Shown here piece by piece: positions 5,132 to 37,996 of a DNA stretch of 37,996 nucleotides. The DNA comes from a virus. A program made the translations under genes and the position numbers. Where the stretch lies: IMG/VR virus record IMGVR_UViG_3300015204_000001; one strand, 5' to 3'. Positions within the stretch are counted from its first letter, which is position 1. Each line of letters begins with the position of its first letter. The notes beneath the pieces were generated by a model. The model did not search any database, was not told the origin of the DNA, and worked only from the letters and a program-made list of their open reading frames with translations.

Positions 5132-6172
5132 ATGGCAAAAGACAATTTTGATCGATGTCTTGCTATCACCCTTAAATGGGAGGGCGGATACTCCAATCAT
5201 CCTGACGATCCGGGCGGCGCTACTATGAAAGGCGTTACGCAGGGAAATTATAACAGCTACCGCGCATCGAAGGGCAAATCGAAGCGCCCCGTTCGTCAGC
5301 TGGAAGAAGCCGAACTACAGGAAATTTATCGGCGCGATTATTGGGATGCCATGGGGTGCGATGCGCTGGCCAGTGGCCTCGACCTCTGCGTTTTTGACGC
5401 TGCCGTCAACTCCGGTGTCGGTCGGGCTAAAAAGTGGCTTCAAGGCGATTCCAGCATCGATAGCTATTGCGCGCGGCGCTTGTCTTTCGTTCAGGGTCTC
5501 GGTCATTTGTGGCGCGTCTTTGGTGTGGGCTGGAAACACCGGATTTTCGGAATAAGAGACCATGCACATGTCATGACGGGCGCGCCCGTCGTTGTGCCCG
5601 TCGATGACGGATCAATCCATGCGGGCATGAAGGGGGAGAAGGTTCTGGCGTTGCAAGTCGCGCTACGGAACCTTGGCTATCCAGTGGGAGAGACCGACGG
5701 GACTTACGGTCAACAGGTCTATCGTGCCGTCGTCGTGTTCCAAACCGACCACGAACTCGCCGGCGAGCCGGGCGTTTGGCTCCCGTCGTATGACGCCGTG
5801 CTGGCCGCAGCCGCGCCGATGCTCCCAAAGCGCGCTGAGGCGACACATAAGGACCTAGAGGCCAAGGGCGATCACATGGTCAAGGGCCTGAATATTTTGC
5901 AGCGCGTCTTCGCTTGGATTTTTGGCGGCGTCACGGCATCCCAGGTCGTCAACGGCGGAAGCGTGCTGGAAAGCATGGGTGCCGCTCGCCAAGCGCTAGA
6001 CCCCGCAGTAGAACTCGCCACGTGGGCTAAGGGCAATTGGTTTTTCATCGCGGCAGCCGGATGCGTCATCGTCATCGCGATCGTGCGCATGCTGCGATCA
6101 AGCCACGTCGAGGCGTACCAGAATTTCACCTATCAGGGCCAGGCCCCAAAAGTAGAGGCTCCGAATGCTTAA
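5132..6172 (+). CDS. endolysin: GH108-type muramidase N-domain, peptidoglycan-binding repeat and C-terminal hydrophobic anchor
   Basis: N-terminus FDRCLAITLKWEGGYSNHPDDPGGATMKGVTQ..Y matches the GH108/COG3926 signature. GEKVLALQVALRNLGYPVGETDGTYGQQVYRAVVVFQ is PG_binding_1-like. The C-terminus carries WFFIAAAGCVIVIAIVRML. Confidence 0.85.
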   Translation: MAKDNFDRCLAITLKWEGGYSNHPDDPGGATMKGVTQGNYNSYRASKGKSKRPVRQLEEAELQEIYRRDYWDAMGCDALASGLDLCVFDAAVNSGVGRAKKWLQGDSSIDSYCARRLSFVQGLGHLWRVFGVGWKHRIFGIRDHAHVMTGAPVVVPVDDGSIHAGMKGEKVLALQVALRNLGYPVGETDGTYGQQVYRAVVVFQTDHELAGEPGVWLPSYDAVLAAAAPMLPKRAEATHKDLEAKGDHMVKGLNILQRVFAWIFGGVTASQVVNGGSVLESMGAARQALDPAVELATWAKGNWFFIAAAGCVIVIAIVRMLRSSHVEAYQNFTYQGQAPKVEAPNA

Positions 6173-8734: not shown

Positions 8735-8928
8735 GGGGCCTTCAACTTTGAATTAAGGTATGCTACTATTTGCGGCTCGGTGTAGTGCGGCCCCTTTCGA
8801 AGAAGGAACCATCCGATTTCCTGCTTTTTTCGTGCGATAGCCAGTTCATCGCAGGCAAATCTTCCCGGCCATTTAAGCAATACATCGTCTTCATGCATCA
8901 ACTCATCTACCTTTGAAAGCTCACTCAT
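8557..8928 (-). CDS. excisionase-like DNA-binding protein
   Basis: ATG 8928 overlaps the upstream stop. The pattern DDVLLKWPGRFACDELAIARKKQEIGWFLLRKGPHYTEPQIVAYL resembles AlpA/Xis-type winged-helix proteins found upstream of integrases. The 3' end overlaps int by about 178 nt. Confidence 0.45.
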   Translation of the reverse strand: MSELSKVDELMHEDDVLLKWPGRFACDELAIARKKQEIGWFLLRKGPHYTEPQIVAYLNSKLKAPCQKYQPKPIDLERPIQLKSDLKSRVNGWEGKRGKAPITDTGMTKSPVASAEKALAQLL

Positions 8929-9502
8929 TGGCTTGCTTTCCGCTATTGAGGCGCTTAAAACCGAAGTCGCGAAGCTTGATTTTGGCCATGCGACCATCTG
9001 AGTGGTGCCATACGATCCCTTCGATATCCTTGCCCTTGAGCCATTCTTGCAAGCCGTCGAAGGTGCGCGGAGGTGTATCCGGCAAGGCGACTGCGGGACT
9101 GAAATGACCGATTAGTCTGTGATTTTCGTAGCGCTCAGGGTTGCCCTGAATTTTAGGCCCGACAAGCTCATAAGTGCCATCGAGCTTAGGTGACATTTGA
9201 TCGAAAGCCTCGCGGTGCCAGCAATCCTCAGCGTTTCTTTTAACCTTCATCCAACCTACTGTTTTTCCAGTTTCTTCGTCGTGATCGGCCAGAACGAAAC
9301 CGTCAGGCGGCGTCCCCTCCTTACGAAGTTCGCGGCGCTTGAACAAAACGCCATCGTCAATAAGGCAGGACGTGCCTTCGAGCTTGCGCGTGGCGACACC
9401 TTCACCGTCGATTACCCATTGAGCTTTCGGGTTAACCTTGTTGACGACGCGGCTTTTGTCGCCGCTCCAGTCGCGTTCGAATAGTGTTGGCATTTTCTTC
9501 AT
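8921..9502 (-). CDS. nucleotidyltransferase-superfamily ligase-like protein (RNA/DNA ligase fold)
   Basis: Ordered motifs: ATRKLEGTS (KxDG-like motif I with D replaced by E), GTYELVGPKIQGNP (motif III-like), EGIVWH (motif IV) and KIKLRDF (motif V). Confidence 0.55.
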   Translation of the reverse strand: MKKMPTLFERDWSGDKSRVVNKVNPKAQWVIDGEGVATRKLEGTSCLIDDGVLFKRRELRKEGTPPDGFVLADHDEETGKTVGWMKVKRNAEDCWHREAFDQMSPKLDGTYELVGPKIQGNPERYENHRLIGHFSPAVALPDTPPRTFDGLQEWLKGKDIEGIVWHHSDGRMAKIKLRDFGFKRLNSGKQANE

Positions 9503-10348: not shown

Positions 10349-11014
10349 TTAGCGACCGATATACGTTTGTATTCCAACGATGTAGCATAACGAGATTTCC
10401 GCGGAAATCGGCACGGGAAGCATGACAACGTTTCCCTCTGAGGCGCTGGCCAGTGCTAGCCCTCCGTTAATGCGGACAACCTTTCGAATTGTCTTTTCGA
10501 CAAGATCCCCAAGCACGCGACGAAGCACGACAAAATCCCCCGCCTGGGGTGCCAAATCGGCATCGGCATAATCGACCGTAACCACGTAGGCTCCCGCTGG
10601 CGCGAAGGGCATGGCGTGGTCGTCAATGATTTTATAGGCCTCTTGTCTTATACCAAGGTATCGCTCGGACTCATAAGGCGCTATTTCCGTTGTGTTTTCT
10701 GCTATTTTCATCGATCCCCCGACCCAAATATCATGAGCTACAAATCCCGCGAAAAAAACCTTGATCTTATCATTTGTCAAGACGTGCGGCAGCGCTACAG
10801 GTGCGGCCTCACCTATGTATTTTTCGATAATTTTTATCTGCCAGATTTTAATGTTTTGCTTATTTTTTGAATGGGGAAGCAATTTTGACACACTGGCGTG
10901 GCTGTCAAAGCCCAGCGCAAGCGCTAGGCCGCGTTGGGTTTTTCCTTTCTTCTTAAGGCCGTTTTCGAGCCATTGCCGCAAAACGTCTTGATCGTCATCG
11001 TCTCTTGACCGCAT
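10349..11014 (-). CDS. CI/LexA-like repressor (N-terminal HTH and S24-like C-terminal domain)
   Basis: N-terminal KGKTQRGLALALGFDSHASVSKLL is an XRE-type HTH. C-terminal DDHAMPFAPAGAYVVTVDY...GDFVVLRR...EKTIRKV is S24-like. It is divergent from the Cro-like gene. Confidence 0.75.
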   Translation of the reverse strand: MRSRDDDDQDVLRQWLENGLKKKGKTQRGLALALGFDSHASVSKLLPHSKNKQNIKIWQIKIIEKYIGEAAPVALPHVLTNDKIKVFFAGFVAHDIWVGGSMKIAENTTEIAPYESERYLGIRQEAYKIIDDHAMPFAPAGAYVVTVDYADADLAPQAGDFVVLRRVLGDLVEKTIRKVVRINGGLALASASEGNVVMLPVPISAEISLCYIVGIQTYIGR

Positions 11015-11043
11015 GACCCTAAATCACCTATCAGTTTCGAGCT

Positions 11044-11060
11044 CGTTCCAATTCGGAACA
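11044..11060. promoter_or_regulatory. regulatory motif site B in the cI/cro intergenic region (cGTTCCAATTCGGAACA)
   Basis: Perfect palindrome GTTCC-N5-GGAAC, 8 nt upstream of TTGCTA (11069-11074) and 30 bp from the cI start codon. Confidence 0.55.
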
Positions 11061-11104
11061 TTTTTCTCTTGCTATTTGATTTTGAAGCGGTTACTGAGGT
11101 GCCA

Positions 11105-11461
11105 ATGACGAACGGACATGACCAAATCGAGAACAGCGAAACGTTCGATGCGATTGCGGACAGCGATCTATTTCTTCGGCCACCACTTCAAGAGTGCCGG
11201 GAGCGGCTGGAGCCAGCAGCGACCGTTATCGAAATGTTCAGGACGGATACAATGAGCGGCGAAAACGCACTAGCTGAAATTTTGGGCTGCACAAGGACGG
11301 CGGTTTACAAAACCCAAATGCCAGAAAGGCGCGGCGGTCGCGGTGGTTACTTTCGCTCGAAACACCTCCCGCTAATCATGCGTGCGGCTCAGGAAAGAGG
11401 CCTAAAAATCAGCCCTTACCTGATTATGGGGTATTACCAACTGTTGGAAAAGGAAATTTAG
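11105..11461 (+). CDS. Cro/CII-like HTH DNA-binding protein
   Basis: ATG 11105 follows GAGG. HTH-like GENALAEILGCTRTAVYKT. It is divergent from the repressor. Confidence 0.55.
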   Translation: MTNGHDQIENSETFDAIADSDLFLRPPLQECRERLEPAATVIEMFRTDTMSGENALAEILGCTRTAVYKTQMPERRGGRGGYFRSKHLPLIMRAAQERGLKISPYLIMGYYQLLEKEI

Positions 11462-11463
11462 AA

Positions 11464-11940
11464 ATGGCCGGGTCCTTAAGCGGTGCCGCGCGGCATCGGC
11501 GAAACGAGGGGTGTGCGAAAGCAACCGGGACCGGCCTAAACGGTGAAACCGGCAACCCTTCGGCCGCGCAATTTTCTCTGACCGAGCATCAAATACAAAG
11601 CGTCGTCATGAAGGCCTATAGGCAACGCGCCAATCCGGCAACGGTGTTGTTCGCAATTCCCAACGGGGGCGCGCGTGACGTGGTGACTGGCAAGCTCCTC
11701 AAAGACGAAGGCGTGGAAGCTGGCGCGCCGGACCTTTTTGCGTCTAGAAAGGGGCGGTGCTTTTTTATCGAGGTCAAAACTCTAAACGGTAAGGTCTCGG
11801 CGGCACAAGATGAAATGCATCGAAAATTAAGCTTGGCCGGCGTTGATGTCTATGTCTGCTTTGGGCATGAGGAGGTAATAAGCGTTCTCCAAGTTAATGA
11901 AATTATTCGCCATCCAATAATTAAAGGGAAACAAAAGTGA
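11464..11940 (+). CDS. VRR-NUC domain nuclease
   Basis: The pattern LFAIPNGG...GAPDLFA...FFIEVKT..GKVSAAQ matches the PD-(D/E)xK VRR-NUC signature. Confidence 0.8.
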   Translation: MAGSLSGAARHRRNEGCAKATGTGLNGETGNPSAAQFSLTEHQIQSVVMKAYRQRANPATVLFAIPNGGARDVVTGKLLKDEGVEAGAPDLFASRKGRCFFIEVKTLNGKVSAAQDEMHRKLSLAGVDVYVCFGHEEVISVLQVNEIIRHPIIKGKQK

Positions 11941-12200
11941 AACGGGGTCAGGCAAAAAAGCAAAATGTTGTCGATATAAAGCGTAGCGTTACTTGCGACG
12001 TGATCGGCGATGTCTTGTCTTTGTTTTGCGGCCCATTTACTAGTGACGAATTTGACTGTGAATTACGGCATCTTTGCGCGATATACCGCTGCGAAATGCC
12101 AGGGACGATAAAGGTCGGCAAGCGTCTTGCCGAGATAGGTTTCGAGGTCGAGCGGTGCAGGCGTTATAGTTTGCCGGGCGACCTGAGGATAGCCGCATGA
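11937..12200 (+). CDS. hypothetical protein (may partly be a read-through of TnpB upstream sequence)
   Basis: 87-aa ORF. The GTG start overlaps the VRR-NUC stop, and its stop overlaps the tnpB-like ATG (ATGA). No HUH or recombinase motif. Confidence 0.35.
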   Translation: MKRGQAKKQNVVDIKRSVTCDVIGDVLSLFCGPFTSDEFDCELRHLCAIYRCEMPGTIKVGKRLAEIGFEVERCRRYSLPGDLRIAA

Positions 12201-13273
12201 TGATGCTCACATACAAATATCGTGTCAAGGACGAAACAACGGGGAAACACCTCGTTGCGCACTCGCGCGCGGTTAATTTTGTGTGGAATTATTGCTGCCA
12301 AATCCAGCGCGAGGCCGAGGGCCGTTGGAAGGCCGGAGTTAAGACCAGGTGGCCGTCCGCTTTTGACTTGATTAGGCTTTGCACGGGAAGCGCTAAAGAC
12401 CTTGGATTGCACTCCGATACGGTGAAAACCGTTTGCCAACAGTTTGTTGTTTCTCGTGACGTTAAGCGGAAATGTCCTCGTTTCCGGGCGAGCGGCGGCG
12501 CGAAGCGCTCCCTTGGTTGGGTGCCGTTTGTTTCTCGCGCGGTTAAGATCGACGGCGATTGCGCGATCTATCTTAAAAAGCGCTTCCGTTTTTGGAGGTC
12601 GCGTGAAGTAGAAGGCGTTTTCAAGACCGGCGCGTTTGTTCAAGACGCTTGCGGGCGTTGGTACGTTACTTTTCAATGCGAAGTCGCCGAAACCCTTCCC
12701 ACTGGAAACGGAGAAGTCGGCATCGACCTCGGTCTTAAGACATTGGCGGTTTGCAGCGACGGGAAAACCGTTCCGGCCCTTCGGCATTACCGGCGCTACC
12801 AAGCCGCGCTGGCGACCGCGTCCCGCGCCAATAATAAGGCCCGCGTCAAGGCGATCCACGCGAAGATCGCCAATTCCAGGAAACATCACTTGCACGAACA
12901 ATCTACCGTGATTGTCCGCGCCAATAGTTTTATCGCAGTCGGCAACGTGAACGCCGCCAATCTCGCGAAGACCAAGATGGCGAAATCTGTCTTGGACGCA
13001 GGATGGTCTACGTTCAGAAACATGCTCGAATACAAAGCCAGAAGGCACCGGGCGAGTTTCTATCAAGTCGATGAGCGGTGGAGTTCTCAAACGTGCTCGT
13101 ACTGCCGGACAATTCCCGGCAGTAGTCCGAAAGGTATGGGCGCGCTTGAAGTAAGGCATTGGGTTTGTTCGAACTGCAATTCAGTCCACGATAGAGACCT
13201 GAATGCAGCTTTGAACATCCTCCGTGTCGGGCGAGAACGTTCGCCTCTGGTTGCAGAAATCCCCGGCCTTTAG
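12197..13273 (+). CDS. tnpB: TnpB-like (IS200/IS605 OrfB family) RNA-guided nuclease homolog; canonical RuvC-II Glu not evident
   Basis: Carries GEVGIDLGLKTLAV (RuvC-I, D177), zinc finger CSYC...CSNC, and VHDRDLNAALNI (RuvC-III). The RuvC-II position reads FIAVGNVNAANL (12929-12964) instead of I-x-x-E-D-L. Confidence 0.85.
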   Translation: MMMLTYKYRVKDETTGKHLVAHSRAVNFVWNYCCQIQREAEGRWKAGVKTRWPSAFDLIRLCTGSAKDLGLHSDTVKTVCQQFVVSRDVKRKCPRFRASGGAKRSLGWVPFVSRAVKIDGDCAIYLKKRFRFWRSREVEGVFKTGAFVQDACGRWYVTFQCEVAETLPTGNGEVGIDLGLKTLAVCSDGKTVPALRHYRRYQAALATASRANNKARVKAIHAKIANSRKHHLHEQSTVIVRANSFIAVGNVNAANLAKTKMAKSVLDAGWSTFRNMLEYKARRHRASFYQVDERWSSQTCSYCRTIPGSSPKGMGALEVRHWVCSNCNSVHDRDLNAALNILRVGRERSPLVAEIPGL

Positions 13274-13386
13274 GCCGGGGAAGACGTTAAGTACAGAGAC
13301 AGGGTGTGTCCCGGCGTGTGCGTGCAAAACAGTGAGTCGTGCGAGGTAGAAGTCGCCACGGAAACAGAAGAAAGAAAGAGAAAGCC
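13150..13386 (+). ncRNA. candidate TnpB-associated omega/guide RNA region
   Basis: By analogy, omega-RNAs overlap the tnpB 3' end and run downstream. A perfect 8-bp GC hairpin, CCCCGGCC-TTTA-GGCCGGGG (13261-13280), spans the stop codon. About 110 nt with no convincing ORF follow. Boundaries are unknown. Confidence 0.3.
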
Positions 13387-13623
13387 ATGGTCAATATGTA
13401 TTCGATTTTTGTGTGCAAGTCTTGCAAACGATTTCCCGGTGAAACCAAAGAAGAAACTATATACGAATACTCGCTGCAGCAAGTTCGAGACTTGCACGGC
13501 GAAGCACAAACTGGCGATCCATTGCCGACGGGTAACGGCTCGCTCATTTTGTGCTATCCAGACGCCCGATACGAAGGATTCTTCAAGGTCGGCCAGGAGT
13601 ACGATTTGCAGCTCATGAAATAA
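13387..13623 (+). CDS. hypothetical small protein
   Basis: ATG 13387 follows a purine-rich AGAAAGAAAGAGAAAG stretch. 78 aa with a CxxC near the N-terminus. Confidence 0.45.
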   Translation: MVNMYSIFVCKSCKRFPGETKEETIYEYSLQQVRDLHGEAQTGDPLPTGNGSLILCYPDARYEGFFKVGQEYDLQLMK

Positions 13624-13625
13624 AT

Positions 13626-13671
13626 AGATTGCGTTAACGTATATACACGTTAACGGCGATTAACGCAATCT
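13626..13671. repeat. 12-bp perfect inverted repeat with internal CGTTAACG copies
   Basis: AGATTGCGTTAA (13626-13637) pairs with TTAACGCAATCT (13660-13671). CGTTAACG occurs at 13632-13639 and 13648-13655. Confidence 0.7.
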
Positions 13672-13677
13672 CAGTTA

Positions 13678-13729
13678 GTTAGTTAGGCGTTGCCCTTAAA
13701 ATTGCTGGCGGGGGCAAATCCTAACTAAC
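13678..13729. repeat. compound inverted repeat (10-bp outer and 6-bp inner stem)
   Basis: GTTAGTTAGG (13678-13687) pairs with CCTAACTAAC (13720-13729). The inner stem is TTGCCC/GGGCAA. The left arm (TTAG)x3 places TAG in all three frames. Confidence 0.7.
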
Positions 13730-13764
13730 CATCCTCTTCACCCAAAAAAAAAGAAAGGAACGCA

Positions 13765-14544
13765 GTGTTTGAGCTTGAGGATATCGGAGAGGTCGACACG
13801 AACTCTCCGAAACGATTTGTCATCTACGGCCCGCCAGGTATCGGAAAAACGTCTTTCGCTGCGGAATTTCCCGCGCCTATTTTTATACAAACCGAGGATG
13901 GCCAGCCAGCCGGTGCGCGCTTCAAGACGTTTACCCCGTCGGGAAAAATACAGACATGGGAAGAGGTTTCGTCAGCACTTCGGTTGCTTGCGAAGAAGGA
14001 TCACGCCTTTGAGACTATCGTCATCGATAGTATCGACAAGCTCGAGCCGTTGATATGGGCGCACGTTTGCCAAAAAAACGGATGGGATAGTATAGAATCT
14101 CCCGGTTACGGTCGCGGCTATGTAGAAGCAGACGCGTTATGGTACAAACTGTTTGAATATCTAGACTATTTGCGCAACAGCAAGAACATGACTTGCGTGT
14201 TGATCGGTCACTCAGCCGTCGTCAGCTCGCCAAACCCATCAGGCCAAGACTTCCCGAAATGGGACATCAGGCTACACAAGCGCGCCCATGGCATTGTAGA
14301 GGATAGCGTGGACGCAATACTTTTGTTGCTGTACGATTTGAGCACGGGCGTAGATAAAAAATCATCCGACAAAAAAACCAAATCAGCGAATAGTAATATC
14401 CGCTGGATACACTGTAACGGCGGCCCCGCATTCAATGCAAAAAACCGCCTCGGTCTACCGAACAAAATTATATACAATGAAGGCCAAGCATATCTAGAGC
14501 TTAGCAAGCATATACACGGCGAAATCTTGGAAACATCGGAGTAA
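13765..14544 (+). CDS. AAA_24/Sak4-like RecA-fold ATPase (recombination module)
   Basis: Walker A is VIYGPPGIGKTS and Walker B-like is TIVIDSIDKLE. The overall pattern is typical of phage Sak4-like proteins. GTG start. Confidence 0.75.
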   Translation: MFELEDIGEVDTNSPKRFVIYGPPGIGKTSFAAEFPAPIFIQTEDGQPAGARFKTFTPSGKIQTWEEVSSALRLLAKKDHAFETIVIDSIDKLEPLIWAHVCQKNGWDSIESPGYGRGYVEADALWYKLFEYLDYLRNSKNMTCVLIGHSAVVSSPNPSGQDFPKWDIRLHKRAHGIVEDSVDAILLLLYDLSTGVDKKSSDKKTKSANSNIRWIHCNGGPAFNAKNRLGLPNKIIYNEGQAYLELSKHIHGEILETSE

Positions 14545-14552
14545 AGATCAAA

Positions 14553-15143
14553 ATGGCGACGCTTAAAACTTCATTAGGCCAGCAAGACAAGCACGATAAC
14601 TTCGTACCAGCTGGCGAATACCACGTTTGTATCTTGACCGCCGAAGTAAAAGAAACCAAAAATGGCGGAGAACGCGTTCTCGCTCGTTTTCAGGTGATGG
14701 ATGGAAATTATGGAGGGCGATCATTTTTCCTCGGTTTTAACACCGAAAACGACAATGCGGCAGCCGCTGAAATCGGCCGGTCGCAGCTTTACTCTATCGG
14801 CCTTGCCGTTGGGTGCGATTGCGTCGAAGACACGGACGAACTTGTTGGCAAGCCATTTATCTTAAAATTGCGCGTCAAGGAAGGCCAGCTCGGAAAAGAG
14901 AACGACTTCGCCGCCGCAATGAGCTTGCCAATTGTCGTCGGGAGAACTCCAGCGGTAGCAGCGCAACGCCGGTCTCCCGCGCCTAGCCAAGCTCAGGTGA
15001 ATACCCACGCTCAAATGAACATCCAGCGAGGCGATGCCGTCCCGAGGGAAGAGTACGCGCCACGCGCCGGGGCGCGTCCGGCGGGAATGGTCGCGCAGCG
15101 CGGAAGAGCAACGCCCTTCGACGCTGACGAAATACCTTACTAG
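14553..15143 (+). CDS. DUF669-like single-stranded DNA-binding protein
   Basis: The N-terminal OB-like pattern (PAGEYHVCILTAEVKETKNGGERVLARFQV) and acidic C-terminal tail FDADEIPY are typical of SSB partners. It sits next to the Sak4-like gene. Confidence 0.6.
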   Translation: MATLKTSLGQQDKHDNFVPAGEYHVCILTAEVKETKNGGERVLARFQVMDGNYGGRSFFLGFNTENDNAAAAEIGRSQLYSIGLAVGCDCVEDTDELVGKPFILKLRVKEGQLGKENDFAAAMSLPIVVGRTPAVAAQRRSPAPSQAQVNTHAQMNIQRGDAVPREEYAPRAGARPAGMVAQRGRATPFDADEIPY

Positions 15144-33107: not shown

Positions 33108-33842
33108 ATGCCCCGGTCTTTTTTGCAGCTTGTGCAGGCCGCGTGCGCGGAAATGGCTCTTCAACAGCCGACGACGGTCATCGGAAACCCGGACCAAACG
33201 ACGACGCAATTGCTTGCGTTATGCCAACGCGAGGGTGCTGAGTTTTTCAAAGAAGAGACGCTGTACGGCGGATGGTCGGTTCTGAGGACCGACTACACGT
33301 TCAACATGGTGCCAGGGCAGACGGTCTACCCCTTGCCTGCGGATTACGGCTGGTTCCTTCCAGAAAGCATTTGGGACAAGAATTTTCGCTGGCAGCTTTT
33401 GGGGCCATTAAGCCCGCAAGAGTGGAACGTCTTGCAATACGGCATCACGCCGCTTGGACCTCGCACAAGATTTCAAATACGAGGAACTTCGCTTTATCTC
33501 AATCCCGCTCCCGGCGTCGGACAGACGGATACGGTAGGTTTATCCTATCAGTCCACGGCATGGGCAAAGTCTTCTGGAGGCGTCCCGCAGGGGCAATGGC
33601 TAGCAGACACCGACACATACCGGCTCGACGAAGACAGTCTCATTCTCGGCTTGATATGGCGATTTTTTAAAGCAAAAGGCTTTGCTACGACTAACGGCGC
33701 TTATGAGGATTATCGGCGTTGCGTCGATACGATCAAGGCGCGCGAGGCTGGCGGGCGGACGTTACCGCTAAATTCGGCGGCTTCGATGGATATCAATATT
33801 ATAAATTCCGCGAACGTTCCAGACACGGGATTTGGATCGTGA
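33108..33842 (+). CDS. virion structural protein (adaptor / tail tubular A position)
   Basis: 244-aa ORF, the first gene after module copy 2. Function is assigned by position only. Confidence 0.45.
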   Translation: MPRSFLQLVQAACAEMALQQPTTVIGNPDQTTTQLLALCQREGAEFFKEETLYGGWSVLRTDYTFNMVPGQTVYPLPADYGWFLPESIWDKNFRWQLLGPLSPQEWNVLQYGITPLGPRTRFQIRGTSLYLNPAPGVGQTDTVGLSYQSTAWAKSSGGVPQGQWLADTDTYRLDEDSLILGLIWRFFKAKGFATTNGAYEDYRRCVDTIKAREAGGRTLPLNSAASMDINIINSANVPDTGFGS

Positions 33843-35407
33843 GGGCGCTAAGAAGGACCACGAAAGGGCGGCGTCCGGCTGCTGTTACCGAGAAGACGAA
33901 AAGCGTACCGGCCCCCACGGGCGGGCTTAACGCCGTCAATGCGATTGCCGAAATGCCACCAACGGACGCGCTCGTTCTGGACAACATTTTTTGTCAGCCA
34001 GGTTGGGTCGAGGTTCGAAAAGGCTATACCAATTTCGTGACCGGGTTTCCGGGATGGGTCGACACGCTGGCGGCCTATGCCAGTGCGACCGCTCAAAAGC
34101 TGTTCGCGCTATCGGGCGGAAATCTTTATGACGCGTCCGTGTCCGGCCTCGTTGGCGCGCCGCTTCTTACGGGATTGCCGTCGTCTCGCTATGAGGGCGT
34201 CCAGTTCGCCACGCCCGGCGGAAACTACCTTTATTTGATGTGCGGCAACGGCGCGCCGCTCCTTTACGACGGCGTGACATTCAAGGCCATAACCGGCGTC
34301 ACGGCCCCTATCGCTCTTTCTGGACCTACGTCCATAAACAAGTTGCGCAATCCGTGGGTTTGGAAAAACCGGCTTTGGGCGATAGAAGATGGAACGTTCA
34401 CCGCGTGGTATCTCCCAATTCAATCGGTTGGCGGTGTCATGCTCCCGCTACCACTGGCTAGCTATTTTACACTTGGCGGGCAGCTTCAATGCGGTTTCGA
34501 GTTTTCCCTTTCCGACGCGAACACCACGGATGACTTTATCGGCTTTATGTCGAGTTTTGGCGAGATTGTCGTTTTTCGCGGAACCGATCCTGCTTTTCAG
34601 GGGTCTTTCGGGCTTGCCGGGGCTTTCCAGGCCGGACGCCCCGTGGGAAGAAGGCCTTACTTCAAGTATGGCTCCGACACGATCCTTATCACCACGGACG
34701 GCTTTAATTCTGTCCGTGAGGTCATATCGTCGGGACGGGACAGGCAAAACCAGGCCCTTTCTTACAAAATACTCAACCTGATAAATAACGATACGGCAAG
34801 CTATGTTGGCAATTTTGGATGGCAAGGCATAGTATATCCAATAGGAAACAAGCTTATCGTCAACGTTCCCATGATATCGTCGTCTACTCAGTACCAATAT
34901 GTCATGAATACAATAACAAAATCTTGGTCTACATTCAGCAACTGGAATGCGTCTTGCTTTGAAAAGCTTGTAGACAATTTGTATTTTGGCGGTAATACTT
35001 ATGTTGCTTTGGCGGATACTGGAAACACCGATGGCGGAGCCGCGATTAGCTTCAAAATAAAGCCAGCTTTTAACTATTTCGATAGCGACAGAAAAAAGCA
35101 GTTCAAGATGGTGCGCCCGATCATCGCGGCCAACGGATCGCAGAACATTTCTCTGCAAATCAACGTCGATTTCAACGATATTGCACCGTCATTGCCCAAC
35201 GCTCCAAGTCTATCTTCGGGGCCTTTTTGGGACGTTGCTTTATGGGATACGGTACAATGGGGGGGCGCGGAACAAATTTTCCAGAATTGGTATAGTGTAA
35301 ATGGCTTGGGTTTTGCCTCTACTCTTTATTTGACTGGAAGCATAAACGGAAGTACTCTAAAATTGCAAGCAATCGACTACCTCTATGAAGTTGGAGATAT
35401 ACTTTGA
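33839..35407 (+). CDS. virion structural protein (nozzle / tail tubular B position)
   Basis: GTG 33839 overlaps the upstream stop (GTGA); the tracked ORF starts at 33719. The N-terminus is PTGGLNAVNAIAEMPPTDALVLDNIF. Confidence 0.45.
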   Translation: MRALRRTTKGRRPAAVTEKTKSVPAPTGGLNAVNAIAEMPPTDALVLDNIFCQPGWVEVRKGYTNFVTGFPGWVDTLAAYASATAQKLFALSGGNLYDASVSGLVGAPLLTGLPSSRYEGVQFATPGGNYLYLMCGNGAPLLYDGVTFKAITGVTAPIALSGPTSINKLRNPWVWKNRLWAIEDGTFTAWYLPIQSVGGVMLPLPLASYFTLGGQLQCGFEFSLSDANTTDDFIGFMSSFGEIVVFRGTDPAFQGSFGLAGAFQAGRPVGRRPYFKYGSDTILITTDGFNSVREVISSGRDRQNQALSYKILNLINNDTASYVGNFGWQGIVYPIGNKLIVNVPMISSSTQYQYVMNTITKSWSTFSNWNASCFEKLVDNLYFGGNTYVALADTGNTDGGAAISFKIKPAFNYFDSDRKKQFKMVRPIIAANGSQNISLQINVDFNDIAPSLPNAPSLSSGPFWDVALWDTVQWGGAEQIFQNWYSVNGLGFASTLYLTGSINGSTLKLQAIDYLYEVGDIL

Positions 35408-36754: not shown

Positions 36755-37996
36755 ATGGCTCAATCTGGCGGTATAAATGCGGGATTGGCAATCGCCGATC
36801 CAGAATTGTTCAACTCGCAGCTATCGTACCAGGCGCAGCAAGACGCGCTTGCGCGTCGGCAAGCGCTTGCCCAGTCGCTTTTGCAGGATAGTTCGCAGCC
36901 TCTTCCGAACGCGGCGGCGTCTGGAGGCGTGCAATATCACACTTCCCCGCTCGAGGGTCTGTCGCGTGTTTTGTCCGGTGGGTTAGGTGCCTACGGAATG
37001 CAAAAAATTAACGAAGATAGTCTTGCCGCAGCAAAAAACTATGGAAAGGCCATTCAGGGCAGTTTTGGCGGCACGTCTTCATCAGGGGCGGGGACGACGC
37101 CCACAAACACGCCAGCGGCGTCTTCTCAGGGTTCTGGCGGGAGTCTTTCTTCGGCCATTCAAGGCCTTTTTAGCCCATCTTCTCCTTCACCTTCGGAGGC
37201 TCAGCCGCCCGTCGCGGGGGGCAGCCAGACGCAAGACAATGGCCAGCAACCCTACAAGCCGGGCGGCACGCCAGTCGTGAACGGTGGGTACAATCTCGGC
37301 AAGCTCGATCCCATGATTAACGACGCGGCGCAGCGCTACGGGGTGAACGCCCAGACGATGCGCGCTCTTATCGGTATCGAAAGCGGTGGGAACCCCAACG
37401 CCGGGGCAAGCAGCTCTTACAAGGGTTTGGGGCAGTTCAACAACGACGAATGGTCGAAATACGGAAAAGGCAGAAACGTCCTTGATCCGGCCGCGAGTAT
37501 CGACGCAATAGGGGCAAAACTCGCCGATCAAACGGTTTCGTTCAAGGCGAAGTACGGTCGCGACCCCGAAGCGAACGATCTCTACATGATGCATCAGCAA
37601 GGCGAGGGCGGCTACGCTAATCACGCCGCCAATCCCGACCGGCCCGCGTGGCAAAACATGAACGATACCGCCGAGGGCCGTCAAAAAGGAGCGGGATGGG
37701 CAAGAAAGGCCATATGGGGCAACGTTCCTGGGGACCAAAAGGAGAAATTCGGAAGCGTCGATAACGTCACGTCCGGTCAATTTATGGATATGTGGCGTAA
37801 CAAGATGGCGCGCTTTGGCGCGGGTCCGGCACAAGCCAATTTATCTGCCCGCACTGGCCAGCCAGTTCAGACCGATCAAAACGCTGCCCAAACTCAGGAC
37901 GCTCCGACTGGACAGGCACCGTTAGAGGCTCAGGGTGCATCACTAGCTAGTGGCGCGGGCGCTTTACCGCAAGATGGCGCATCCGCATCGCCCACG
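36755..37996 (+). CDS. internal virion protein with lytic transglycosylase (SLT) domain, 5' portion (continues at 1..1299)
   Basis: It is absent from the ORF track because it has no stop in the window. ATG 36755. The SLT motif is LIGIESGGNPNAGASSSYKGLGQFNNDEW...MMHQQGEGGY. It reads in frame into base 1 through the 99-bp overlap. Confidence 0.85.
   Translation, partial: MAQSGGINAGLAIADPELFNSQLSYQAQQDALARRQALAQSLLQDSSQPLPNAAASGGVQYHTSPLEGLSRVLSGGLGAYGMQKINEDSLAAAKNYGKAIQGSFGGTSSSGAGTTPTNTPAASSQGSGGSLSSAIQGLFSPSSPSPSEAQPPVAGGSQTQDNGQQPYKPGGTPVVNGGYNLGKLDPMINDAAQRYGVNAQTMRALIGIESGGNPNAGASSSYKGLGQFNNDEWSKYGKGRNVLDPAASIDAIGAKLADQTVSFKAKYGRDPEANDLYMMHQQGEGGYANHAANPDRPAWQNMNDTAEGRQKGAGWARKAIWGNVPGDQKEKFGSVDNVTSGQFMDMWRNKMARFGAGPAQANLSARTGQPVQTDQNAAQTQDAPTGQAPLEAQGASLASGAGALPQDGASASPT
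37898..37996. repeat. 99-bp terminal overlap identical to bases 1-99 (circular closure)
   Basis: Direct comparison of the two window ends. Confidence 0.95.

Follow-up and report, generated by a model that had tools for sequence, protein, structure and literature searches.

A phage-borne TnpB cassette with a predicted relocated catalytic glutamate, a retained right end, and neither left end nor tnpA

Is a TnpB protein that lacks the canonical glutamate of its RuvC-II motif and is encoded in the early operon of a temperate phage still a nuclease, or has it become a nuclease-dead RNA-guided binder? This question is raised by an open reading frame (ORF) of 358 aa at positions 12197 to 13273 on the plus strand of the IMG/VR virus record IMGVR_UViG_3300015204_000001, a stretch of 37,996 nucleotides that was analyzed as a whole and is called the window below. 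We consider it likely that this locus is an intact but immobilized tnpB-omegaRNA cassette, which would encode a most likely active RNA-guided nuclease for double-stranded DNA. The explanation that accounts best for all data, and which we hold as a whole with good confidence, derives this cassette from an ISPa83-like element of the IS200/IS605 insertion sequences (IS) that belongs to the RuvC-II-rearranged "TnpB2/RIIr" clade.

Family and active site of the TnpB protein

The assignment of the 358-aa ORF to TnpB, the RNA-guided endonuclease family of IS200/IS605 elements, is firm. In profile searches, the ORF reached 199 bits with NCBIfam guided_TnpB (cut-off 100), 49.5 with Pfam OrfB_IS605 (cut-off 30.5), and 77.4 with Pfam Cas12f1-like_TNB (cut-off 26.3). 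An AlphaFold2 model built from 44 homologues, with a mean predicted local distance difference test score of 84.5, had TnpB of ISFba1, TnpB of ISDra2, and a mimivirus Fanzor2 (8iaz, 8h1j, and 9b0l) as its best Foldseek matches. A preliminary description of this DNA had called the ORF TnpB/OrfB-like on the basis of three motifs, and the profile scores and the Foldseek matches agree with this assignment. All three motifs were also located where they had been reported: the RuvC-I aspartate D177 in GIDLG (12725 to 12727), the zinc finger C300-x2-C303 (CSYC) and C324-x2-C327 (CSNC) (13094 to 13177), and HDRDLNAALNI at residues 331 to 341, which contains the RuvC-III aspartate D334 (HDRD, 13196 to 13198) that aligns to D361 of ISDra2 TnpB, all on the plus strand. 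Two more in-frame ATG codons follow directly after the ATG at 12197, and the native start may be that at 12200 or 12203.

Conservation of the active site was evaluated in two alignments. The family is very large: in a 90%-clustered protein database, 8,000 candidates were scored and more than 7,700 of them reached E ≤ 1e-10, as did 5,620 representatives of 50%-identity clusters. The close-homologue set contained the 120 closest proteins with 63 to 75% identity plus the query, 121 sequences in total, and the representative alignment contained the query plus 72 full-length representatives after 50% clustering with 32 to 54% identity, 73 sequences in total.

The segment FIAVGNVNAANL at 12929 to 12964 is the RuvC-II region as it had been quoted in the preliminary description, which had claimed that the canonical glutamate is absent there. 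This was correct. When aligned to solved structures with phmmer or profiles, the protein has G249 of FIAVGNV (12941 to 12943, plus strand), at the end of the beta strand 243 to 249, opposite the glutamate of ISDra2 TnpB (E278, IIGTEHL), of an AI-designed nuclease/TnpB (IIAVEDL), and of LaTranC (LLAVETL). A glycine occupies this position in all sequences of both alignments, 121/121 and 73/73. The glutamate predicted to have taken over catalysis is E293 in VDERW (13073 to 13075, plus strand), 44 residues C-terminal of G249. It was present in 121/121 close homologues and in 71/73 sequences of the representative alignment, and the two sequences without it are frameshift-like fragments with C-termini that could not be aligned. 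D177, D334, and the four cysteines of the zinc finger were invariant in 121/121, and D177 also in 73/73. In the AlphaFold2 model, E293 is found two residues past the beta strand 287 to 291, which is the next strand after that ending with G249. The predicted catalytic triad would thus be D177/E293/D334, with E293 standing in for the glutamate of the canonical position that is now G249.

Because G249 is invariant throughout the clade and E293 is invariant as well, the single missing glutamate should not be taken as inactivation, and the glycine at position 249 appears from these alignments to be a feature of the clade and not a sign of decay. Since it occurs clade-wide and defines a rearranged sub-clade, it is also compatible with membership in the TnpB superfamily. 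Another residue, E234 in HLHEQS, had been named before as a possible replacement. It is present in 101/121 close homologues and was dismissed as the relocated glutamate because this position is a lysine in 57/73 representatives.

A clade with a relocated glutamate is already described in the literature. In the largest of the RuvC-II-rearranged (RIIr) branches, the glutamate is changed to glycine and an alternative glutamate on beta-5 compensates, as in RuvX (Altae-Tran et al. 2023, PMC10691335). In all Fanzors and "TnpB2" proteins, the alternative glutamate is found at a distance of about 45 residues, an E467A exchange abolishes the activity of ApmFanzor, and the rearranged TvTnpB performs DNA cleavage that depends on a target-adjacent motif (TAM) (Jiang et al. 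2023, PMC10530073). A Fanzor2 structure solved by cryo-electron microscopy has the triad D324/E467/D501 with the glutamate shifted by 50 residues (PMC11832414). The pattern of G249 and E293 at a distance of +44 agrees with the published exchange of glutamate to glycine and an alternative glutamate about 45 to 50 residues away, and the place of E293 just after a beta strand agrees with the alternative glutamate reported on beta-5 (PMC10691335). On this pattern, the protein is assigned to the TnpB2/RIIr clade. A relocated-glutamate clade had been the second of two readings in the preliminary description, and it is this one that holds, because G249 and E293 are found clade-wide and match the published branch.

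The first and more emphasized of these readings had compared the protein to the TnpB-like nuclease-dead repressors (TldR). Such a protein would be an RNA-guided DNA binder taken over by the phage for repression of a promoter, be it of the host or of a phage. The missing canonical glutamate agrees with such a binder, but only one position of the Asp-Glu-Asp (DED) motif deviates, the clade has an invariant compensating E293, the zinc finger and RuvC-III are intact, and the C-terminus is not truncated. With E293 invariant across the clade, this reading therefore falls. The TldR discovery paper reports that an alternate position of the glutamate gave spurious calls of "inactivated" proteins, and its initial screen was therefore limited to proteins with at least two RuvC mutations, which excludes cases with a single changed glutamate such as this one.

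The gene itself also appears not to be decaying. The query departs from columns with at least 90% conservation at 5 positions, compared to a family mean of 4.3, which is rank 52 of 121, and thus shows no sign of relaxed constraint on tnpB. Among six near-identical contigs compared, out of at least seven retrieved, tnpB contained two single-nucleotide polymorphisms (SNPs), both synonymous. The cassette also has no compositional anomaly, with a GC content of 54.5% in the cassette and 53.4% in the genome. An ORF of 331 aa runs antisense through nearly all of tnpB (12164 to 13159, minus strand) and most likely results from the codon composition of tnpB.

Right end, guide, and missing left end of the cassette

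The 3' part of the omega-RNA scaffold forms the right end of the transposon at 13229 to 13290 (plus strand), as indicated by covariation and by a conservation boundary. The last 230 nt before the right end and 20 nt beyond it were aligned for 38 loci. Conservation ended sharply after ...GGGGA(A/G)GA(C/T)GT(C/T)AA in 38/38 of them, and the same terminus ending with GTYAA was present in 44 fetched loci. The terminus in the window copy is GGGGAAGACGTTAA, ending at 13290. Three helices were assigned, at 13229 to 13246, 13247 to 13256, and 13260 to 13281 (plus strand), the third one spanning the stop codon of tnpB. Within these helices, 97% of the alignment cells pair, compared to 48 to 52% when the partner was slid by 1 to 3 columns; compensatory cells numbered 165 compared to 16 to 30 in the slid controls, and the covariation score was 0.68 compared to about 0.10. 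None of the three helices is lost in the window copy, whose single-sequence fold has a z score of −4.6. No Rfam family reached its gathering threshold, and sub-threshold matches to HgcC and sot0042, which we take to be archaeal TnpB-associated RNAs, were obtained at 13098 to 13300 on the plus strand. Judged from these patterns, the omega-RNA scaffold is intact, overlaps the 3' end of the ORF, and has a sharp guide boundary.

Since the terminus ends at 13290, the guide starts at 13291; in all relatives, the base next to the right end is the first that is not conserved. The predicted guide is GTACAGAGACAGGGTG at 13291 to 13306 (plus strand), with an assumed length of about 16 to 20 nt. The omega-RNA scaffold is thus encoded across the 3' end of the ORF up to 13290, and its predicted guide is the adjoining phage sequence from 13291 onward.

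The TAM has to be deduced from the left ends of related elements. In three relatives, L084, L085, and L087, whose proteins are 71 to 72% identical, a divergent tnpA of the Y1 (HUH) type is located directly upstream of tnpB, and beyond tnpA there is a highly conserved left-end hairpin, GGAAACCCCGsCsTTyAGGsCGGGGAGGA. The closest relative (L083, 75%) is a solo element with the same left-end hairpin 60 nt before the ATG. Ralstonia pickettii RAL3 contains three copies of a more distant member of the clade with 94 to 95% identity and about 1,160 bp each. The left-end hairpin was found with a strict pattern in 28 loci, and TTCAT or TCAT was positioned 12 to 20 nt upstream of it in nearly all of these. 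Similarity among paired or tripled copies begins exactly at this TTCAT or TCAT. Because the motif precedes the left ends of the relatives and the similarity of the copies starts there, we infer TTCAT as the TAM. By analogy with the relatives, the enzyme would cut DNA with 5'-TTCAT directly before GTACAGAGACAGGGTG. The locus itself would be spared from cleavage because the guide-matching sequence is preceded there by the right end, GTTAA, and not by the TAM.

The closest relatives with an identity of 72 to 75%, L085/L086 (JGI 3300037140 / 3300037222) and L083 (JGI 3300045621), are located in phage-like contexts. Phage_lysozyme2 and Peptidase_M15_4 are neighbors at one site, and a single-strand-binding protein (SSB) and a dATP/dGTP pyrophosphohydrolase at the other. 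This TnpB sub-clade may circulate preferentially among phages of Alphaproteobacteria.

In a nucleotide comparison with eight close relatives, homology of the window was restricted to about 12200 to 13290, and weaker matches started later. The conserved leader CAGACCAAC..., which precedes the ATG of the relatives, is missing in the window copy. Searches with a degenerate pattern allowing up to 3 mismatches, a fuzzy pattern allowing up to 7 mismatches, and a regular expression for the clade found no left-end motif anywhere in the 38 kb, and only the right end at 13256 to 13281 matched. A perfect 8-bp hairpin at 12115 to 12133 within the upstream gene was rejected as a left end, being unrelated in sequence to that of the clade. 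A tblastn search of the window with two Y1 TnpA proteins of the clade gave a best match of 26 aa at E = 0.014, which is chance level, and among all likely genes with 180 aa or more, PHROG or Pfam scans yielded only a tyrosine integrase. The cassette has a right end but has lost the left end and tnpA, so that the solo position without tnpA, which had been noted before, is confirmed and extended to the left end. With both of them lost, the cassette would not be mobilizable by TnpA.

Breaks of short Logan contigs (L001 and L002, at 12155 and 13335/13306) were considered as possible IS ends and rejected because they coincide with strain SNPs and longer contigs of the same phage continue through these positions with 99.8 to 99.97% identity. 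Positions 12171 and 12835 are T in the window and C in most other assemblies of this phage.

The preliminary description had considered that the gene may be an ordinary hitch-hiking IS if many identical copies existed elsewhere. Instead, the next-closest protein among 5.8 billion clusters was only 75% identical. The donor IS of the cassette may simply be unsampled.

Phage setting and possible role of the cassette

The window appears to be the complete genome of a temperate phage of about 37.9 kb, circularly closed because its first and last 99 nt (1 to 99 and 37898 to 37996) are identical (100% over 99 nt). PHROG and Pfam scans identified an early rightward operon with genes for VRR-NUC, a Sak4-like protein, a DUF669/SSB-like protein, a helicase, and a primase-polymerase, and further genes for a tyrosine integrase, terminase, portal, major head, and tail proteins. 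The same phage with the same arrangement was found in at least seven independent assemblies at 99.8 to 99.97% identity. Relatives of Sak4 and TnpB suggest that its host probably belongs to the Hyphomicrobiales.

The left junction of the cassette is an 87-aa phage gene, ORF87 (11937 to 12200, plus strand), which is not part of the IS and is homologous to the ORF that follows VRR-NUC in syntenic phages. Two such phages, L093 and L094, were reached via Sak4 homologues with 53 to 62% identity, and their intergenic target is too diverged to align. ORF87 aligns over its full length to the C-terminal ...AA in both (E = 2.6e-14 and 7.8e-10), so that it is a genuine phage gene and not debris of the left end. 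Neither phage has a tnpB gene between the ORF87-like gene and Sak4, so that the cassette represents an insertion into a slot that varies between phages. When 11464 to 14544 of the window was compared with 3918 to 5780 in L093 and 3537 to 5798 in L094, the small ORFs in this slot differed in each phage: L093 has one of 70 aa, L094 encodes a repetitive protein of 129 aa, (GxKLRAEG)n, and the window contains tnpB and a 78-aa ORF. Gene exchange appears to have a hot spot at this slot.

At the junction, the upstream gene is complete and a stop/start overlap has been created. The ATG of tnpB overlaps the TGA of ORF87 in the ATGA at 12197 to 12200, as the preliminary description had reported, and a Shine-Dalgarno-like GAGGA (12185 to 12189, plus strand) is positioned 7 nt before this ATG within the 3' end of ORF87. 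The common strand, the overlap, and the GAGGA make co-transcription of tnpB with the early genes plausible. With its start codon fused to the stop of a native gene and its own left-end leader gone, tnpB would be expressed from the early replication and recombination operon of the temperate phage.

What could be the function of an active but immobilized nuclease at this site? The most likely role, to which we give somewhat less than even confidence, is that of a selfish homing or anti-loss nuclease, which would cleave cassette-free alleles of related phages during co-infection so that repair copies the cassette into them. This would be the usual function of TnpB carried over to phage populations. 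That elements without TnpA may still spread by homing is an idea put forward in the OMEGA review (PMC13565253), and homing needs homology but no left end. A more specific version is tentative and on balance doubtful: the left-end-less tnpB-omegaRNA may have been retained by the phage as a homing or interference nuclease against co-infecting cassette-free relatives carrying TTCAT plus GTACAGAGACAGGGTG. It would be co-expressed with VRR-NUC, Sak4, the SSB-like protein, and the helicase, and the outcome would be conversion by recombinational repair or exclusion of the relative. If true, the cassette would correspond to the free-standing homing endonucleases of T-even phages, but with recognition programmed by RNA.

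Several points weigh against an active cassette with such a role. The TnpB protein is known here from sequence and model alone, its activity being a prediction, and the proximity of E293 to D177 and D334 is predicted solely from the position in the secondary structure. The putative TAM was drawn from the left-end flanks of relatives and not from the window copy. No guide target flanked by TTCAT was found in the window, IMG/VR, or the JGI metagenomes: the window contains no second copy of the guide at up to 3 mismatches, IMG/VR gave no target, the 11 exact 18-mer matches in the JGI metagenomes are at chance level and none is preceded by TCAT or extends further, and the fetched loci contained no meaningful match. 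A cassette-free allele of a close relative was not recovered from INPHARED, IMG/VR, or the protein clusters, which leaves homing as a proposal; INPHARED had no megablast match to 11000 to 15000, IMG/VR had none to peptide patterns of ORF87, ORF78, and Sak4, and ORF87 had only identical copies in the database of 5.8 billion protein clusters. All sampled copies are nearly identical, which prevents any demonstration of long-term purifying selection acting on the phage copy.

Some of these points would also be expected of a functionless relic, which is the strongest of the alternatives and nevertheless unlikely. An IS would have entered the slot after ORF87, a deletion would have removed the left end together with tnpA if it was present, and the remainder would be neutral and will decay. 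The missing left end and tnpA agree with this, as do the absence of the cassette from the syntenic relatives, its occurrence in only one near-clonal phage lineage, the lack of a guide target, and the frequency of TnpB insertions in phages, with matches in 408 INPHARED phage records. On the other hand, the ORF has its full length and an average number of departures from conserved columns, all helices of the omega-RNA are intact, and a random deletion is unlikely to leave an intact upstream gene, a stop/start overlap, and a Shine-Dalgarno motif unless it was selected or is very recent. A relic is moreover compatible with an active nuclease and differs from the best explanation only in whether the activity has a role.

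Domestication as a weapon is less probable still. An active TnpB would have had its guide retargeted against a competing phage, a plasmid, or a host locus for superinfection exclusion or host takeover, and this would agree with an immobilized cassette under early transcriptional control of the phage, with its location beside the recombination genes for VRR-NUC, Sak4, the SSB-like DUF669 protein, and the helicase, and with a protein predicted to be active. The guide, however, begins exactly at the right-end boundary and continues as intergenic phage sequence, as would that of an unmodified IS, none of the collections searched contained a TAM-flanked match, and the neighbors match no PADLOC defense family.

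A TldR-like repressor is very improbable: the cassette is indeed phage-borne, part of a phage operon, and immobilized in the absence of left end and tnpA, resembling the fliC-associated TldRs of prophages, but relatives with the same glycine and glutamate are autonomous in tnpA-bearing IS and in multi-copy IS families such as the three copies in R. pickettii RAL3, the guide corresponds to the neighboring flank, as is usual for an IS, no promoter matching it was found, the gene is located in a lytic early operon and not in the position of a moron expressed in lysogeny, no conserved partner gene such as fliC_P or oppF is among the neighbors, and the syntenic phages do not have the cassette.

With an active TnpB of the relocated-glutamate clade as the preferred explanation, the locus adds to a kind of TnpB that is already known, and what is somewhat unusual is that it has lost its left end and is joined by a stop/start overlap to a gene in the early recombination operon of a temperate phage. 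The case is a caution that one "missing" RuvC-II glutamate in a TnpB is not evidence for a nuclease-dead regulator, and that an alternative glutamate about 45 residues downstream must be checked before a TnpB is called dead. If the enzyme is active, the locus would be a natural test case for persistence and spread of TnpB in phages by RNA-guided homing without transposition. It also provides surveys of such enzymes with a further compact TnpB (357 to 358 aa) with a rearranged active site and a putative TTCAT TAM.

The neighbors of tnpB are ORF87 and the 78-aa ORF, both without family match, plus VRR-NUC and Sak4. None of them matches a PADLOC defense family, and the Cas12f matches of TnpB itself indicate only homology. 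A Type V CRISPR (Cas12f) system would be recognized by an adjacent array or adaptation genes, and no array of clustered regularly interspaced short palindromic repeats (CRISPR) was found in the window. The divergent gene pair at 10349 to 11014 (minus strand) and 11069 to 11461 (plus strand), where the switch between lysis and lysogeny is presumed, had been labeled "cI" and "cro" before; these labels are only positional, as neither protein matches any family in Pfam, PHROG, or PADLOC. The 130-aa protein of this pair has a weak homologue at the same position in L094 (36% over 78 aa, E = 1e-13).

Nested inverted repeats composed of CGTTAAC, GATTGCGTTAACGTATATACACGTTAACGGCGATTAACGCAATC, are located at 13625 to 13675 in the intergenic region between the 78-aa ORF and Sak4, with outer arms of 11 bp around a TATATA core. 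They could be an operator, an origin, or a terminator, and a terminator-like match was obtained on the minus strand at 13655 to 13632. Outside this region, a 193-aa protein encoded at 8921 to 9502 (minus strand) matches the PHROG RNA-ligase family phrog_14301 (E = 1e-58) and weakly Pfam RLIG1; its gene is located in the leftward operon by the integrase region, and a small temperate phage would not usually carry such an accessory gene. The genome also encodes two cell-wall hydrolases, at 5132 to 6172 and 33719 to 35407. One of them is a GH108 lysozyme with a PG_binding_1 domain, and the other, with 562 aa, matches a PHROG "amidase" (E = 4.5e-101), is located among structural genes, and may be a virion-associated lysin.

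Comparison with known systems

The window TnpB shares with the RIIr (PMC10691335) and TnpB2 (PMC10530073) proteins the exchange of glutamate to glycine, an alternative glutamate that follows the next beta strand about 45 residues toward the C-terminus, the aspartates of RuvC-I and RuvC-III, the zinc finger, and an omega-RNA that extends over the 3' end of the ORF. Autonomous relatives in this group are found in an IS200/IS605 setting with a Y1 TnpA, whereas the window copy is joined to a phage gene and lacks both the left end and tnpA. The cleavage-competent TvTnpB is archaeal, uses the TAM NTGAC, and is only distantly related.

TnpB of ISDra2 (PDB 8EXA / 8H1J) has the same fold (Foldseek E = 6.7e-19) and the same domain order, and D177 and D334 correspond to its D191 and D361. 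Its TAM is TTGAT, and the putative TAM here, TTCAT, is a similar pentanucleotide; in both systems the 3' guide of the omega-RNA comes from the flank of the right end. The proteins differ in E278 of ISDra2 versus G249 and in a proline of ISDra2 versus E293, and ISDra2 TnpB is part of a complete IS with tnpA and both ends, in contrast to the window copy.

Cultured phages also carry TnpB genes of this clade, one example being TnpB of the Ralstonia phage Heva (MT740742), annotated as "IS200/IS605 family transposase ISPa83" and 44% identical over the full length. It has the same pattern of glycine and alternative glutamate (VGDV / KESY) and the same right-end terminus, GGGGAGGAAGTCAA, is also phage-borne, and has no tnpA annotated in its 2.5-kb flanks. 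In Heva, 447 nt of non-coding sequence upstream of tnpB leave room for a left end, whereas the window ORF abuts the preceding gene.

The TldRs of Enterobacter prophages are likewise derived from TnpB, borne by temperate phages outside of a mobile IS, and have kept a downstream guide RNA. The initial TldR screen collected proteins with at least two mutations of the DED residues, many of them without the C-terminus with zinc finger and RuvC-III, whereas the window TnpB keeps two of the three canonical positions and the full C-terminus. Guides of TldRs match host promoters beside a TAM, and no such target of the window guide was found in the window, IMG/VR, or the JGI metagenomes. Finally, free-standing homing endonucleases of the T4 SegF type (intronless homing, PMC13565253) are, like tnpB here, nuclease genes located between conserved phage genes that could cleave an allele without the cassette and spread through recombinational repair. 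They serve here as a working analogy only: homing endonucleases recognize their DNA by protein, whereas the window TnpB is predicted to be guided by RNA.

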